Of a stretch of 64,000 bases of DNA, positions 22,803-55,221 are shown piece after piece (position 1 is the stretch's first letter; the number at the start of each line of letters is the position of its first letter). The DNA comes from a bacterium (GTDB lineage: Bacteria > Pseudomonadota > Gammaproteobacteria > GCA-002705445 > GCA-002716945): the NCBI GenBank assembly GCA_029979505.1, contig JAPOHH010000006.1, positions 1,237 to 65,236 of the forward strand, written 5' to 3'. The translations under genes were made by a program, and so were the position numbers. A model generated the notes under the pieces. It did not search any database. It was not told where the DNA came from and saw nothing but the letters and a program-made list of their open reading frames with translations.

Positions 22803-23567
22803 TTATTTTTTTTTGAAAAATGATAGAAATTTGTCTAAAGCATCCTGAAACGGGTTAACTCTAAGTTTTTCTGATTCTACGCTTATTTCATCTATACATT
22901 TAACTGATCTTGCAGGATAAGGTCCATGAGCTGTTTCTTGATAGAGCGCTATCAAATCAAATCCTTCCTCAAGGGTGTGGCCAATCTCAAAATTTTCATC
23001 TCTAGATTGAACCTGTCCTTTCATAAGAGTTGGAATCAGTGCTAGGTAAATAGGCTCACAGTTATTTTCTTTAGATCTCTTAACAATGTTATCATCGTGG
23101 ATAACTTTTGAATCTAATTCAATCATAGAGTAATCACACTCTGCGAAAAAGTCATCTAAGTCACTAGTTTCATGACCATTTTTAACTCTTACACAAATTT
23201 TTATACTATTATTTAATTTAGATTTAATACTTTTAAAAAAATCAATCCCATTAGAAATATCAAATGTCATTATTTCAGGTAAAACTTCATTACCAAAATT
23301 AATATAATCATCTGTAATTTTATCATCTGTGTCTAAGTAGACTGATGTAGACAAATTTCTTTTCTTAGACTGTTCTCTAAATAAATCTATTCTATTTTTT
23401 GCGACATCACTACCATCACTAAAAAGGACACGTGCTATGTCAACACCATCTGTCCACTGGCGAGCAATACCGGCCATTAACATAGTTATTAATTCTTTTT
23501 CATTATCAGTCGATGGACCAAGTGTCGCTATTATCAAACTAAGACGATGTCTATCTGAATTTGTCAT
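22803..23567 (-). CDS. Degenerate pyruvate-kinase-like protein (barrel domain only; B and C domains and catalytic residues missing)
   Basis: IIATLGPST, ARVLFSDG, VYLD and GFDLIALYQETAHGPYPARSV align by eye to PK IVATLGP, RLNFSHG and GTDAVMLSGETAxGxYPxEAV. Confidence 0.7.
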   Translation of the reverse strand: MTNSDRHRLSLIIATLGPSTDNEKELITMLMAGIARQWTDGVDIARVLFSDGSDVAKNRIDLFREQSKKRNLSTSVYLDTDDKITDDYINFGNEVLPEIMTFDISNGIDFFKSIKSKLNNSIKICVRVKNGHETSDLDDFFAECDYSMIELDSKVIHDDNIVKRSKENNCEPIYLALIPTLMKGQVQSRDENFEIGHTLEEGFDLIALYQETAHGPYPARSVKCIDEISVESEKLRVNPFQDALDKFLSFFKKK

Positions 23568-23612: not shown

Positions 23613-24404
23613 ATGACTATTGAGACATTAACAACATTAAAAGTATCTTTTTTCGTACTTGGATTTATTATATTTCTTCTTATCGAAACATATCACCCAA
23701 ATAGAGAATGGAATACACCAAGATATAAAAGGTTATTATTTCATTCGGTTATAGCTGTTTTCAATACTGCGCTTATGCGAATACCAATTATTTTTATTTT
23801 AATGCCTGTATTAATTCTAATAACCGAGTCACAATATGGTTTGTTATTTATAATTACAGAACAAAATTCTATTAAATTTCTATTAAGCTTTATTATTTTA
23901 GACTTGTCATTATATTGGTGGCATAGATTAAATCATACAAACCAATTTCTCTGGAAGTTTCATTATGTTCATCATGTGGATACGCATATGGATGTTGGAA
24001 CATCGGTCCGTTTTCATATAGGAGAGTTAATATTATCTACTATATACAAAGCGGTAATAATATACATATTTGGTATTACACTGGCTGAATATCTTTTTTA
24101 TGAAATACTTTTAGTGCTATCGATTCAATTCCACCACAGTAATATATTGCTGCCTTCTAAAGTTGAAAAAGTACTGTCTAGAATTCTTGTGACACCTATA
24201 TATCATACCAATCATCATACAACTGCCCGTAGTTCAAGAGAGGCAAATTACTCAAGTATCCTGACAATTTGGGATAAATTATTTTTATCATATGTAGATG
24301 CGAAAGATGAAGAAAGATTACATATGGGTTTAGAAAACAGAGAAATAGAACTCAAATTAATCGAAAATATAATGTATCCCTTCAAAAAAAATGTTGACAG
24401 ATAA
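23613..24404 (+). CDS. Sterol desaturase / fatty acid hydroxylase family membrane di-iron enzyme
   Basis: His boxes YWWHRLNH, FHYVHH, FHHSN, HTNHH; NYSSILTIWDKLF. Confidence 0.85.
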   Translation: MTIETLTTLKVSFFVLGFIIFLLIETYHPNREWNTPRYKRLLFHSVIAVFNTALMRIPIIFILMPVLILITESQYGLLFIITEQNSIKFLLSFIILDLSLYWWHRLNHTNQFLWKFHYVHHVDTHMDVGTSVRFHIGELILSTIYKAVIIYIFGITLAEYLFYEILLVLSIQFHHSNILLPSKVEKVLSRILVTPIYHTNHHTTARSSREANYSSILTIWDKLFLSYVDAKDEERLHMGLENREIELKLIENIMYPFKKNVDR

Positions 24405-24425
24405 CAGACGGAGTGTTTGAATAGG

Positions 24426-24473
24426 TTACGCCTATTTGAAATCAGCTTGCAGGCGTAAAAGAGCTAAAGCGAT
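24426..24473 (+). ncRNA. SAM-II class riboswitch aptamer (upstream unit of tandem)
   Basis: P1 TTACGCCT/AGGCGTAA; L1 ATTTGAA; pseudoknot ATCAGCTTGC pairs with GC[T]AAAGCGAT; AUUUG..UUGC..GCUAAA signature. Confidence 0.8.
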
Positions 24474-24477
24474 CGGT

Positions 24478-24512
24478 AACCATCATTAGCTTTTGCGTGA
24501 TGGTTTTTTTTT
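24478..24512 (+). terminator. Riboswitch expression-platform terminator
   Basis: AACCATCA (24478-85) / TGATGGTT (24498-505) plus 9 T; TTAGCTTTTGCG (24486-97) is complementary to 24454-24467 of the aptamer (antiterminator). Confidence 0.8.
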
Positions 24513-24569
24513 GGCATTTGAACTCTAGATTGTGTGCCAATACTGATCAGTATAAACACTAAAGAGGAG
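24511..24569 (+). ncRNA. SAM-V class riboswitch aptamer overlapping the Shine-Dalgarno
   Basis: P1 TTGGCA/TGCCAA; TTTGAA loop; TTGTG pairs with CAC[T]AA; CTCT pairs with AGAG of SD GAGGAG (24564-69); inner hairpin TACT-gatc-AGTA. Confidence 0.82.
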
Positions 24570-24575
24570 AAATAA

Positions 24576-24938
24576 ATGAGTAATCATGAAACAAATATTG
24601 AACTTGATAATCCATTAAGTTCGGCAAAGATTGGTGCATATTCGGGATCAATTAAAGCTAAATTTTATAAATCAGGTAAAGTTTTTAAAGGTATACCCGC
24701 TGTTGATATCCACAGTGAACTTAGGTCTGTTTTATGTAATAGCAAAATTAAAATACAACCGTATAATGTTTCATATAAACATGGTCAATTACAGATTGAT
24801 TTACCTAGCAATATTAAAGGTAGTCTTGCTAACTTAATCATAGTAAAAACACTTACGACCGTTGGCTTAAGATATAAATGTATTAGTTGTAAGCTAGAAC
24901 TTGATAATATTACTAAAACTATATGTTTCCATTACTAA
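24576..24938 (+). CDS. Hypothetical protein (120 aa) under riboswitch control
   Basis: Strong SD GAGGAG 6 nt before ATG; ORF ends at terminator hairpin; no family recognised; contains CISC. Confidence 0.7.
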   Translation: MSNHETNIELDNPLSSAKIGAYSGSIKAKFYKSGKVFKGIPAVDIHSELRSVLCNSKIKIQPYNVSYKHGQLQIDLPSNIKGSLANLIIVKTLTTVGLRYKCISCKLELDNITKTICFHY

Positions 24939-24965
24939 AAAAACACCCCCTCAGTTGAGGGGGTG
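24938..24965. terminator. Intrinsic terminator between convergent genes (U-tract on minus strand, for the monooxygenase)
   Basis: CACCCCCTC-agtt-GAGGGGGTG (24944-24965) preceded by an A-run. Confidence 0.8.
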
Positions 24966-24999
24966 CATCAAGTCCTTTTGATCCTTGATATTTCCTATA

Positions 25000-26193
25000 T
25001 TAATTTTCTATTGGGAAAGAAAGTTCATCGTCCTTGAATGAAGTTCCTTCGTAACCAACTTCTTTGTTGATTCTATCAGAAATTGCTTTCTCTTCTGCAG
25101 TCGCAAATTTAGCATCCCATGTTGCTAGTCTTTTGCGCATGTACCAGTGCCATAGTGGTGGTACTAATGCAAGAGCGAAAATTGTAAAGTATCCCCAACC
25201 TGTGTTAGGTGCACCTACGTTTTCAAGTTCCCAGAAATGTGTTTCTCCACGGTCATGGTGGTCAGCTTGACGACCAATTTCGATGAAGAACCAGCTTGTA
25301 AATAATGTGTTGTTGTCCCAGTTATGACGATAGTCAATTGGTTGGTCTTTCACACGTACTAAACCGTAATGCTCTAGATAGTTCAATGCTTCAAGTTCGA
25401 AGTTTGAAATTACCCATACAGTAGCAAGTGCTGCTATACCAATCCATCCGCCAGCCATGAAGAATAATACAGCTGATGGTACTGACATCATATAACCACG
25501 AATCCAACGGTTTTGCCATGAAATGAAAGGTACTCCCATTCTTGAAAGTCTTTCTTTTTCCATGTTAAACACAAATTTTGATTGTCCTAGGTATGAAAGT
25601 AAATAATGACCATAAATAGTACGACCGCGTGGTGCAGTTGCAGGATCATCTTCACTTGCAAGCTCTAAGTGATGGTTGTATACGTGTGCGTAGCAGAAAT
25701 GTGCTGATCCTGAAAGACCCATTGTCATTCTTGAAATAATGAATGCAAAGCCTTTGCAATGTGATAGCTCATGTCCATAAATGATACCTATACCAGCAAA
25801 GATACCAGTTGAAAGCACAGCACCGATTAAATCTAATGAGGTAATTCCGCTGTATACAGGGATTAGATTAAACCATGTTGATGTTACTTCTACAGGTACT
25901 CCTGACATAAATCCGCTTATTCTCCATGCTAGTGCAAGTTGTAATAATACGAATACTGGTAACATTAGATACATTACCATGTTTTGGAATGTTGGAGATG
26001 CTTTAGTTGTGCCGTCATCTTTGTGCATTGCACTTGATGCTTGCTTACGTAATATAGTATCAACTACTACACCTACGCCTAAAAGCGCTACTCCGATCCA
26101 AGAAAGTAATCCACCTGCAAGTACACCAAAAAATGTTACCAAAATTAGTGATGGTGCAAGCAAATACTTAATGTTTGCAAATATTGTTGACAT
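25000..26193 (-). CDS. AlkB/XylM-type membrane di-iron monooxygenase
   Basis: YGHELSH, AHVYNHH, NYLEHYGL (HYG motif), ADHH, DPATAPRG; start set at ATG 26193 after SD GGAGG. Confidence 0.85.
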   Translation of the reverse strand: MSTIFANIKYLLAPSLILVTFFGVLAGGLLSWIGVALLGVGVVVDTILRKQASSAMHKDDGTTKASPTFQNMVMYLMLPVFVLLQLALAWRISGFMSGVPVEVTSTWFNLIPVYSGITSLDLIGAVLSTGIFAGIGIIYGHELSHCKGFAFIISRMTMGLSGSAHFCYAHVYNHHLELASEDDPATAPRGRTIYGHYLLSYLGQSKFVFNMEKERLSRMGVPFISWQNRWIRGYMMSVPSAVLFFMAGGWIGIAALATVWVISNFELEALNYLEHYGLVRVKDQPIDYRHNWDNNTLFTSWFFIEIGRQADHHDRGETHFWELENVGAPNTGWGYFTIFALALVPPLWHWYMRKRLATWDAKFATAEEKAISDRINKEVGYEGTSFKDDELSFPIEN

Positions 26194-26248
26194 TATTGCC
26201 TCCTTTGTCCGCATTTTGTCAATTTATTAGTAGATTAGTGTATTAATA

Positions 26249-54543: not shown

Positions 54544-55221
54544 ATGTGGCAGGAAAAGACAGAAAAAAAATCAATTGCAGAACAATCAGAAATGATTGAC
54601 CTTTCATTTTCAGTTAATTGCAAAGAACTTCCTTATGACCATGCATATGAACTTTCCTCTGAAATTATCAATCTTATACCTGATATTGTGAATGATAAAA
54701 GAAACGCAATTCAAACGCTTCATGGTCCAATGTCTGGTAATGGATGGGTAAGAGCAGATGGAGAAAATATTTTTTTATCAAAAAGAGCCAAGCTTTGTTT
54801 AAGAGTAAATAAATTACAAGTTGATAAAATACGAAACATAGAAGGTAAAAAAATTAAATTGTTCGGCAATGACCTTAGTATAGGTAAGTCGAAGACTAAA
54901 GTATTCTTAGTTGTTAGAGATCTGTTCTGTAGATTCGTCTCATGCCAGGAAGACCTACCTGAAGATATATTTTTAGAACAGGTTCAAAAAGAATTAGGAG
55001 CACATAATGTTCATATCAATAAAGCATTATGTGGACAATCTAAAAGAATCATATTTGGTGATGAAACTTTGCATACGAGGTCTTTAATGATAGCTGATTT
55101 GTCAAAAGAGGAGTCAATTAGGTTACAAGAAGAGGGTGTTGGTGGTCAAAGATTATATGGCTGTGGAATTTTTCTACCTCATAAATCAATAGACGCAGTT
55201 AGTAACTTCAAAGAGGACTAA
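54544..55221 (+). CDS. Stand-alone Cas6/Cmx6-like RAMP protein
   Basis: LPYDHAY N-terminal His motif; C-terminal Gly-rich loop GVGGQRLYGCGIFLP; no other cas genes or array in window. Confidence 0.75.
   Translation: MWQEKTEKKSIAEQSEMIDLSFSVNCKELPYDHAYELSSEIINLIPDIVNDKRNAIQTLHGPMSGNGWVRADGENIFLSKRAKLCLRVNKLQVDKIRNIEGKKIKLFGNDLSIGKSKTKVFLVVRDLFCRFVSCQEDLPEDIFLEQVQKELGAHNVHINKALCGQSKRIIFGDETLHTRSLMIADLSKEESIRLQEEGVGGQRLYGCGIFLPHKSIDAVSNFKED

Follow-up and report, generated by a model that had tools for sequence, protein, structure and literature searches.

A probable two-layer SAM switch with SAM-II-type and SAM-V-type aptamers in the leader of an orphan gene of marine sulfur-oxidising Gammaproteobacteria

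Why would a streamlined bacterium place two SAM aptamers of different classes in series upstream of a single small gene? The arrangement has a precedent: as two papers describe it, the leader of Pelagibacter bhmT carries a SAM-II aptamer, a hairpin with poly-U and a SAM-V aptamer in this order (PMC11508383, PMC5069961), and no sequenced organism other than Pelagibacter was said to have the tandem (PMC5069961). A sequence-only reading of the DNA analysed here (a stretch of 64,000 nucleotides, hereafter the window) proposed the same tandem upstream of a different gene. All features named in that reading exist, displaced by a few bases at most. At 24428-24569 on the + strand, a SAM-II-type aptamer is followed by an antiterminator/terminator with a tract of nine U, and this by a SAM-V-type aptamer whose 3' strand reaches into the Shine-Dalgarno (SD) sequence of a 120-aa ORF at 24576-24938. 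The leader is very probably a two-layer SAM OFF-switch made of two aptamer classes of the SAM-II/SAM-V family, with SAM the presumed ligand of both. The tandem itself is thus known from Pelagibacter; the lineage and the gene context are new.

The locus and its host

The host is a gammaproteobacterium with a genome of 917 kb, and its family consists of uncultured marine Gammaproteobacteria, sulfur-oxidising and with tiny streamlined genomes; the earlier description of the host as a sulfur oxidizer is borne out by the reverse-DSR sulfur-oxidation genes dsrAB and dsrMK within the same window. The features of the locus are, in order:

24394-24422, + strand: promoter, read from the sequence (-35 TTGACA 24394-99, 17-nt spacer, -10-like TTGAAT 24417-22 preceded by TGT)
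24428-24469, + strand: SAM-II-type aptamer (RF00521, 23 bits; compensatory change in P1; core common to metN/metZ/metE leaders)
24459-24494, + strand: antiterminator, the predicted SAM-free state (minimum free energy (MFE) fold of the nascent RNA; conserved terminator-loop box)
24478-24512, + strand: intrinsic terminator (stem AACCAUCA 24478-85 with UGAUGGUU 24498-505, 12-nt loop, U-tract 24504-12; fold -12.1 kcal/mol)
24511-24569, + strand: SAM-V-type aptamer (RF01826, 37.8 bits; P1 variation; layout as in the metY SAM-V structure, PMC6061858)
24563-24578, + strand: SD AGAGGAG 24563-69 and start codon ATG 24576-78, read from the sequence (ACACUAAAGAGGAG invariant across all orthologues)
24576-24938, + strand: regulated gene, an ORF for a 120-aa orphan protein, conserved in six genera
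24943-24966, - strand: terminator of a convergent fatty-acid-desaturase-family gene (25000-26214, -), with a 10-bp stem of which 7 pairs are G-C, and a T-run

The promoter is missing from the scanner list because its -10 element lacks an A at position 2. In orthologous loci TTGACA likewise stands 163-168 nt from the SD box, with TGTAAT, TTAAAT or TTTAAT as the -10; this conserved promoter suggests that transcription likely starts near A24428, directly at P1 of the first aptamer. At the other end, the unit stops after the 120-aa ORF at the 24943-24966 terminator, so that in this genome the ORF is its sole gene.

Two aptamers and the terminator between them

The first aptamer has the H-type pseudoknot of SAM-II, in which the 3' part of the P1 hairpin loop pairs with a 3' tail. 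The AUUUGAA loop and the UUGC:GC[U]AA pseudoknot of the earlier reading are both there: AUUUGAA (24434-40) is the third strand, or L1, and UUGC (24447-50) pairs with GC[U]AA (24463-67) as P2, paired in 100% of the sequences compared and invariant. The 8-bp P1 of that reading exists in the genomic sequence (TTACGCCT 24426-33 with AGGCGTAA 24451-58); in the RNA it is probably 6 bp, given the likely start near A24428, and only ACGCCK/MGGCGT (24428-33/24451-56) is conserved, paired at 95.5% with one compensatory change from U-A to G-C. The pocket sequences AUUUGA, GCUUGC and GCUAAAG match the Rfam consensus in the alignment and do not vary among 22 sequences. The element thus shares with SAM-II (RF00521; the metX aptamer, PDB 2QWY as cited by PMC11508383) the H-type pseudoknot, the AUUUGA strand, the GCUUGC...GCUAAAG core and use as an OFF-switch; it differs from the alphaproteobacterial seed in a shorter P1 and L1, and in its platform, which is a terminator/antiterminator here and SD sequestration in the reference.

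The terminator, with nine T from 24504 to 24512, was overlooked by a consensus scanner because that program limits loops to 3-8 nt and this one has 12. Its complementarity to the aptamer tail, from which a mutually exclusive antiterminator had been proposed, is real: in the nascent RNA, AAGAGCUAA (24459-67) pairs with UUAGCUUUU (24486-94) and GAU.GG (24471-76) with CCAUC (24480-84), so that the antiterminator occupies the 3' strand of the pseudoknot plus the 5' arm of the terminator. P1 plus antiterminator is the MFE fold of the nascent RNA without the terminator 3' arm in 15 of 15 sequences (the window and 14 orthologues), and the terminator-loop box GCUUUAG is kept among orthologues while the stem varies.

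The second aptamer begins inside the U-tract, as had been read. Its P1 (UUGGCA 24511-16 with UGCCAA 24535-40, the first base lying in the U-tract), third strand (AUUUGAA 24516-22, which holds the UUUGAA of the earlier reading) and P2 pseudoknot (UUGUG 24530-34 with CAC[U]AA 24557-62, with a bulged U, invariant) are all present, and the combination of P1, bulged-U P2 and AUUUGA strand agrees with the published SAM-V consensus. A P3 hairpin (UACU-GAUC-AGUA, 24541-52), an addition to the earlier feature list, is followed by an A-stack (AAA 24554-56); in other genera it reads ACC-GAUCA-GGU, the hairpin being kept in a shifted register and therefore only 63.8% paired in fixed columns. The proposal that CUCU pairs with the SD stands in part: CUCU (24523-26) can do so, forming P2a, but its partner is GGAG (24566-69), not AGAG. 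The AGAG register fails in 16 non-g1 sequences, where a C would face an A; with GGAG the helix works across all genera, and two one-sided changes (CUCU or CUUC with GGAG) leave it 100% paired. The SD lies directly 3' of P2, with the ATG at 24576 within about 10 nt.

These are the elements of the solved metY SAM-V riboswitch (PMC6061858): P1, a bulged-U P2 triplex, a 3-4-bp P3, the A-minor adenines of the A-stack and P2a onto the SD; in SAM-V the SD stands no more than 10 nt from the start codon (PMC6061858, PMC2704228), as here. The window aptamer departs from the reference in a longer segment between third strand and P2 (CUCUAGAU), a U-A instead of a C-G closing pair in P2, and another host class and gene; in the supplements to the 2009 SAM-V alignment, the exact strings of the aptamer element are absent. 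Its nested fold is no more stable than that of shuffled sequences (z=-0.03), as expected because the structure is a pseudoknot.

Why, then, is the region unannotated? At gathering cut-offs, Rfam returns zero matches in the whole window. Searched by E-value, both models named in the earlier reading do match, over their full length and at the two proposed aptamers: SAM_V (RF01826) at 24503-24572 with 37.8 bits against a cut-off of 41 (E=8.3e-5 in a short stretch), and SAM_alpha (RF00521) at 24420-24488 with 23.0 bits against 36 (E=0.003 in a 301-nt search). In the whole 917-kb genome the SAM_V site is the unique match (E=6.1e-5). A whole-genome SAM_alpha search did not return the window site; a 15-bit SAM_alpha site in contig C8 was set aside as AT-rich noise that has no P1. 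The SAM_alpha cut-off reflects the annotation limit of an alphaproteobacterial seed and not a structural criterion, because the same core, where it precedes metN and metZ in Chromobacterium, Neisseria and Bdellovibrionia, scores below it as well.

How would such a leader work? At low SAM, the tail of the first aptamer (AAGAGCUAAAGCGAUCGG) would be free and would pair with CCAUC...UUAGCUUUU as this emerges from the polymerase; the antiterminator would sequester the 5' arm of the terminator and allow read-through. The SAM-V aptamer, unliganded, would keep its third strand disengaged and P2a unformed, the SD AGAGGAG would stay open, and the 120-aa protein would be made. At high SAM, the ligand would lock the UUGC:GC[U]AA pseudoknot of the SAM-II aptamer together with its AUUUGA triplex strand; with the tail unavailable, the 24478-24512 terminator would form and most transcripts would stop in the U-tract. 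Those that escape would be silenced by the SAM-V aptamer, in which bound SAM would stabilise P2 and P2a and occlude the SD. The full-length RNA folds into the terminator, and equilibrium folding yields the terminator with the pseudoknot strands blocked as well as free; the switch must therefore be kinetic. Such a kinetic competition is presumed, as are different set-points for the two layers.

Conservation in the family and in other lineages

An exact-motif search finds the unit, including the promoter with TTGACA and its 17-nt spacer, in 28 of the 37 family genomes (species), a single copy in each, and in all six genera, always upstream of the same ORF family. A contig end truncates one further copy; of the remaining eight genomes, which have no element, seven also lack the flanking gene, and in one this gene runs off the end of its contig. 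In other genera, SAM_alpha and SAM_V matches recur as a pair about 85 nt apart, in the same order, upstream of the orthologous ORF (SAM_alpha 18-25 bits, SAM_V 25.8-40.1 bits). The ORFs are only ~24% identical across the six genera, while element and promoter are conserved.

The proposed pairs are paired in 93.8% of alignment cells, against 32-53% for controls with slid partners. Compensatory changes, which go back to few independent events because the genomes are related, occur in P1 of both aptamers (in the second: C-G in 11 sequences, U-A in 10, U.G in one) and in the terminator stem, at two positions (C-G in 12 and U-A in 10 sequences; A-U, U-A or U.G). The earlier reading had named covariation in P1 and P2 as a check: among the family genomes, covariation is seen in the P1 helices and in the terminator, but the P2 pseudoknots and most ligand-pocket bases are invariant, so that covariation cannot support them. 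Inside the family, a model built from it reaches 155-184 bits; elsewhere it reaches at most 63 bits.

The first half of the leader has a wider distribution. Of 400 class-level genomes, 112 have one copy each of an identical SAM-II core followed by a terminator with GCUUUAGC; at the loci inspected, which belong to other gammaproteobacterial families, metN, metZ or metE lies downstream, and this ties the aptamer type to methionine genes. Met leaders of Chromobacterium, Neisseria, Vogesella and other Gamma- and Betaproteobacteria have a near-identical core (CGCCGAUUUGA..CAGCUUGC.GGCG..AGCUAAAGCG) and, as here, GCUUUAGC in the loop or 5' arm of the terminator, and they too are missed at the Rfam gathering threshold. 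Unlike the window, they have no second aptamer, and recognisable methionine genes follow them. The SAM-V half, and with it the tandem, was found only in this family: SAM_V has no match outside it in the 400-genome class sample.

Could the leader, then, work through the SAM-II aptamer and terminator only, with the second element a conserved SAM-V-like translation leader or an aptamer that has decayed and lost SAM binding? That sample marks SAM-V as a class otherwise foreign to the lineage; in no genome does SAM_V reach the Rfam cut-off, three genera scoring 26-30 bits, and two g2 genomes have no match at E<=0.001; the insignificant nested fold also fits decay. Against this, the better scores (37.8-40.1 bits) cover the full model, the pocket (AUUUGA, AUUGUG, ACUAAA) is invariant over six genera while P1 and P3 change compensatorily, and P3, A-stack and the P2a/SD layout are those of the crystal structure (PMC6061858); a plain leader would have no need to retain a pseudoknot. 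A second element of this kind is thus improbable. Less probable still is that both aptamers sense another ligand (SAH, a SAM analogue or a sulfonium compound) on which the orphan protein acts. The regulated gene is no known Met or SAM gene, and two sub-threshold scores could mark variants; yet the core of the first aptamer is base for base that found before metN, metZ and metE elsewhere, and the U:A.U triple and bulged-U positions with which SAM-V reads the sulfonium and adenine of SAM (PMC6061858) are conserved here. That an ordinary AT-rich intergenic region with the terminator of the upstream gene should resemble two short models by chance, as small motifs sometimes do weakly (the site in contig C8 is one), is scarcely credible in view of an E-value of 6e-5 per genome, an element kept with its own promoter in six genera before such divergent ORFs, the compensatory changes and the gap between the scores of the family model inside and outside the family.

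The two-layer SAM switch thus remains the preferred reading, and its closest relative is the Pelagibacter bhmT leader. The literature agrees with the earlier reading that this precedent lies upstream of a methionine-cycle methyltransferase (PMC5069961, PMC11508383), and, as described there, the two leaders share the order of SAM-II, linker hairpin with poly-U terminator and SAM-V ending at the SD, a pair of OFF-switches of which one acts on transcription and one on translation, and a streamlined marine genome. They differ in the host (a gammaproteobacterial sulfur oxidiser here, SAR11 there), in the gene (a 120-134-aa orphan here, betaine-homocysteine methyltransferase there) and in layout, which is more compact in the window: SAM-V P1 starts in the U-tract, whereas the Pelagibacter linker, as described, runs to about nt 110, past U82-U90. 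A point against the switch as drawn here is that, in the full-length Pelagibacter RNA, the SAM-II domain was unresponsive to SAM in vitro (PMC11508383). The SAM-II half in the window is of a type common to other Gammaproteobacteria, which suggests that the two tandems were assembled independently.

The orphan gene and the meaning of the switch

What does the switch control? As the earlier reading had it, the gene differs from that of the Pelagibacter tandem: the product is an orphan without family match and not a methionine-cycle methyltransferase. The protein is lineage-restricted, 120-134 aa long across the family, with 21 representatives among 1.84 billion proteins, and has two invariant cysteines (C54 and C105). 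It contains no internal Met (0 of 3121 residues in 25 orthologues, against 2.1% genome-wide), which fits a product made under Met/SAM shortage. Searches of Pfam, NCBIfam, PHROGs and PDB sequences place it in no family; Foldseek, run with an AF2 model of pLDDT 75, finds no fold match at E<=0.001, and sequence and fold searches together reveal no recognisable link to methionine or SAM. Weak Foldseek matches to ferredoxin-like/ACT folds and to a phage SAM lyase (TM 0.41-0.51, rmsd 6.5-8.9) do not indicate homology, and a SAM-degrading role would be illogical for a gene turned on at low SAM. Elsewhere in the genome, tblastn with MetE and MetN of other lineages finds no MetE and, for MetN, only generic ABC ATPases; there is one MetZ/MetY-like gene (C5:12493-13743).

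Its paired switch makes the orphan a candidate for a new role in methionine/sulfur metabolism. A more specific proposal is tentative, and we would sooner bet against it in full: the Met-free, two-Cys protein may be a new component of methionine/SAM or reduced-sulfur metabolism, for example a persulfide/sulfide carrier that feeds direct sulfhydrylation or a small regulator of met genes, and the single output of SAM sensing in the lineage, its dual switch having arisen, separately from that of SAR11, when an ancestral gammaproteobacterial SAM-II/terminator module gained a SAM-V aptamer.

The locus offers a second natural case, independent of the first, more compact and with a clear antiterminator, in which the cooperation of the two layers can be studied, and it shows that Rfam thresholds miss both the tandem element and a widespread gamma/beta SAM-II subtype. 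If the leader works as its sequence suggests, the orphan protein could be labelled, in physiological terms, as a product of low SAM only, and its function would be open to direct test; the tandem that would confer this label is fixed across a whole family of uncultured marine Gammaproteobacteria.

Layout of the leader and its two aptamers

The leader of the 120-aa ORF carries, between the ORF and a fatty-acid-hydroxylase-family gene, a SAM-II-type aptamer 1 (24428-24469, +), a terminator hairpin and a SAM-V-type aptamer 2 (24511-24569, +).

Features of the leader and its borders (window positions; P1, aptamer stem; P3, mini-hairpin in aptamer 2)
23613-24404, +: fatty-acid-hydroxylase-family gene
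24394-99 and 24417-22, +: promoter-like boxes TTGACA and TTGAAT, 17-nt spacer, read from sequence
24428-33 with 24451-56, +: aptamer 1 P1 hairpin, ACGCCU with AGGCGU, loop AUUUGAAAUCAGCUUGC
3' of this hairpin: tail of aptamer 1, AAAAGAGCUAAAGCGAUCGG
24478-85 with 24498-505, +: terminator hairpin, AACCAUCA with UGAUGGUU, 12-nt loop, nine U at 24504-12
24511-16 with 24535-40, +: aptamer 2 P1 hairpin, UUGGCA with UGCCAA, loop UUUGAACUCUAGAUUGUG
24541-52, +: P3, UACU-GAUC-AGUA
3' of P3, +: UAAACACUAAAGAGGAG, then ATG at 24576
24576-24938, +: 120-aa ORF
24943-66, -: terminator of a convergent gene

The putative transcript start is placed from the promoter-like boxes only; their distance to the element is maintained at orthologous loci. 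The next feature 3' of the ORF is the convergent gene's terminator, so the ORF is the sole gene of its unit in the window. The leader's own terminator is absent from the terminator scanner output because its loop exceeds the 3-8 nt that the scanner accepts. Aptamer 2 P1 begins within the terminator U-tract.

Are these aptamers what they resemble? At gathering thresholds, the whole window matches nothing in Rfam. The sequence-only reading had predicted matches to models of SAM-II as well as SAM-V, and in E-value mode the top two matches in 24350-24650 are exactly those, both full-model and both under their cut-offs: SAM_V (RF01826) covers 24503-24572 with 37.8 bits against a cut-off of 41 (E=8.3e-5), and SAM_alpha/SAM-II (RF00521) covers 24420-24488 with 23 bits against 36 (E=0.003). 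The SAM_V match is the sole one in the 917-kb genome (E=6.1e-5). The window's site is missing from a genome-wide SAM_alpha search, a loss taken to be due to filtering; the 15-bit site returned instead reads as plain AT-rich noise and was rejected.

In the solved metY SAM-V structure, P1 is accompanied by a P2 pseudoknot with a triplex in its major groove, where a bulged U forms a pair with SAM's adenine; the structure further has a general 3-bp P3 stem-loop, adenines that are conserved and dock into P1, and a phylogenetically supported P2a helix that occludes the Shine-Dalgarno (SD) sequence (PMC6061858). The published consensus, RGGY-AUUUGA-A-CYRUAU-UGUGCRCCY-(hairpin)-RAAGY-ACUAA-AAARGRR, agrees element for element with aptamer 2, UGGC-AUUUGA-A-CUCUAGAU-UGUGUGCCA-(UACUGAUCAGUA)-UAAAC-ACUAA-AGAGGAG, including a U-A pair where C-G closes P2 in the consensus.

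Conservation and covariation

Orthologues of the ORF occur in 29 of 61 relatives, all in one family of ~1-Mb genomes, and cover six genera at identities down to ~24%. At nearly every orthologous locus, a weak SAM_V match (25.8-40.1 bits) lies immediately 5' of the ORF, with a weak SAM_alpha match ~85 nt upstream of it. The exact motif GCTAAAGCG, 60-90 nt, ACACTAAAGAGGAG is found once per genome in 28 of the 37 family genomes and in 6/6 genera; its reversed control pattern matches none of the 37. In the other nine, the element is truncated at a contig end (one), or the flanking gene is also missing (seven) or severed by a contig end (one); these absences thus look like assembly gaps. Many metagenome-assembled (MAG) contigs stop inside the riboswitch/ORF locus or within a few hundred bases (L008, L012, L017-L019, L021, L029 and L169, loci in other genomes), which suggests that an assembly-breaking variable region adjoins it and recalls Pelagibacter, where SAM riboswitch genes lie in a hypervariable region (PMC5069961).

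When the proposed pairs, both pseudoknots and the SD helix included, were counted on a 22-sequence alignment, 93.8% of pair cells were paired, versus 32-53% with partners slid by 1-3 columns. Six pairs are altered on both sides, with changes in aptamer 1 P1 (U-A in the window's genus, G-C elsewhere), the terminator stem (C-G in 12 sequences, U-A in 10; closing pair A-U, U-A or U.G) and aptamer 2 P1 (C-G in 11, U-A in 10, U.G in one). The covariation anticipated for P1 and P2 is thus seen in both P1 helices, but both P2 pseudoknots are invariant, which is compatible with the model yet lends it no covariation support; they are proposed from this invariance and by analogy with solved structures. 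Two other early details survive in part: the 8-bp P1 of aptamer 1 (24426-58) is present, but this extension is restricted to the window's genome; and CUCU pairing with the SD holds in all sequences as CUCU/CUUC with GGAG (24523-26 with 24566-69), via two one-sided changes, whereas the AGAG register breaks outside the window's genus. Since the compensatory changes represent few events among related genomes, covariation backing of the proposed structure is moderate, not overwhelming.

A candidate switch in the first aptamer

Folded at full length (aptamer 1 to the end of the U-tract), the RNA adopts the terminator in every case (-11 to -15 kcal/mol). When the RNA is cut before the terminator 3' arm, P1 and a long imperfect antiterminator helix are predicted in the window and in 14/14 orthologues, bearing out the mutually exclusive antiterminator complementary to the aptamer 1 tail that had been proposed. 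This helix joins the tail to the terminator 5' arm and loop (24459-67 with 24486-94 and 24471-76 with 24480-84 in the window; AGCUAAAGC(GAUCGG) with (CCAYC)..GCUUUAG in orthologues). Such pairing would explain two odd conservations: the GCGAUCGG box after aptamer 1, and the GCUUUAG box in the loop of a terminator whose stem varies. As the helix occupies the same GCUAA as the SAM-II pseudoknot, aptamer 1 would form a classic mutually exclusive pseudoknot/antiterminator/terminator platform. Since the terminator is favoured at equilibrium, the choice between it and the antiterminator would have to be made kinetically. This agrees with what is reported for the Pelagibacter tandem, where the linker masks the SAM-II domain of the full-length RNA in vitro (PMC11508383).

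GAUC is kept twice in the leader. The first copy (24472-24475) belongs to the box that follows aptamer 1 (GCGAUCGG/GCGAUCAG) and is accounted for by the antiterminator pairing, which explains this copy only; the second (24545-24548) is the P3 loop in nearly all orthologues.

Relatives of the element and its orphan target

The aptamer 1 core, searched exactly, is present at 87 loci in 185,579 species genomes: the family, Chromobacterium, Aquitalea, Vogesella, Neisseria, Bdellovibrionia and others. R1, the covariance model derived from the family's copies of the element, scores 24-63 bits in 112 of 400 class-level genomes, usually at a single site in each. Outside the family, R1 alignments comprise a SAM-II aptamer and a terminator with GCUUUAGC, followed by no SAM-V-like sequence; at the loci inspected, the next gene is metN, metZ/metY or metE, and therefore the tandem's first half, judged by sequence, appears to be an ordinary gamma/betaproteobacterial methionine riboswitch. 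All these units fall short of the SAM_alpha cut-off. Loci of this subtype (L152-L168, L062-L148) score under that gathering value and are not found at E<=1 in a 48-kb search; the subtype is probably unannotated in most genomes. By contrast, the tandem scores 155-184 bits with R1 in the family, the sole place where it was detected: a 400-genome phylum sample gave no further match at E<=1e-6, and SAM_V at E<=0.001 in 400 class-level genomes matched only the window.

RF02424 (Bp2_287, a Burkholderia sRNA predicted by SIPHT) matches the strand opposite the SAM-II aptamer and terminator.

RF02424 matches (L, loci in other genomes)
L084:3522-3684, +
L108:407-589, -
L130:1036-1166, +
L021:856-971
window 24428-24498, -

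Its consensus is the reverse complement of GCGUCGAUUUGAU..GCUUGCGGACGC..AGCUAAAGCG, so this "sRNA" family is apparently a SAM-II riboswitch leader assigned to the wrong strand.

What does the tandem control? The 120-aa protein has no family in Pfam, NCBIfam or PHROG and no PDB sequence relative, and only 21 sequences among 1.84 billion representative proteins match its profile; the tandem thus precedes a different gene than in Pelagibacter, as had been suggested. Invariant residues are P41, R50, C54, I74, K91, L98, K101, C105 and Y120. A moderately confident AlphaFold2 model (pLDDT 75) has a disordered N-terminus and a hairpin-helix-hairpin-helix-hairpin order; Foldseek finds nothing at E<=0.001, and weaker matches (ferredoxin-like/ACT domains, phage SAM lyase; TM 0.4-0.5) were dismissed as generic fold resemblance. 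Internal Met is absent from 25 orthologues (0/3121 residues vs 2.07% genome-wide; only 13% of similarly sized ORFs are Met-less), which fits a protein made under methionine/SAM shortage. That it is a sulfur carrier or regulator is speculation.

In 7/37 family genomes (those of genera g4 and g6, plus two species of g1, the window's genus; e.g., L115:5193-5543, +; L101:527-889, -), the riboswitch-controlled ORF is followed, with a ~30-nt overlap, by another conserved orphan ORF of ~117-121 aa; the latter has no family match, is not paralogous to the former and is absent from the window's genome. A 254-aa protein (22803-23567, -), about half normal length, matches only the pyruvate kinase N-terminal barrel and a later fragment; it is conserved at this position in all the genera of the family. 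A 225-aa TIGR02807 (Cas6/Cmx6) protein (54544-55221, +; 119.8 bits, cut-off 98.85) adjoins dsrAB.

Family records, MAGs and single-amplified genomes (SAGs) from marine samples, are labelled uncultured Gammaproteobacteria or "Ectothiorhodospiraceae". The window encodes dsrA, dsrB, dsrM and dsrK, so its earlier description as belonging to a gammaproteobacterial sulfur oxidizer is reasonable. The invoked precedent is also on record: in the Pelagibacter tandem ahead of bhmT, termination is attributed to SAM-II and translation to SAM-V, the two differing in affinity, a pairing stated to be unique to Pelagibacter among sequenced organisms (PMC5069961). Apart from the 2009 discovery paper, a full-text literature search turned up no account of SAM-V in Gammaproteobacteria. 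The Pelagibacter join is less compact, and the sharing of the terminator U-tract with SAM-V P1 is a new aspect of the family's tandem; also new are its lineage and its target gene.
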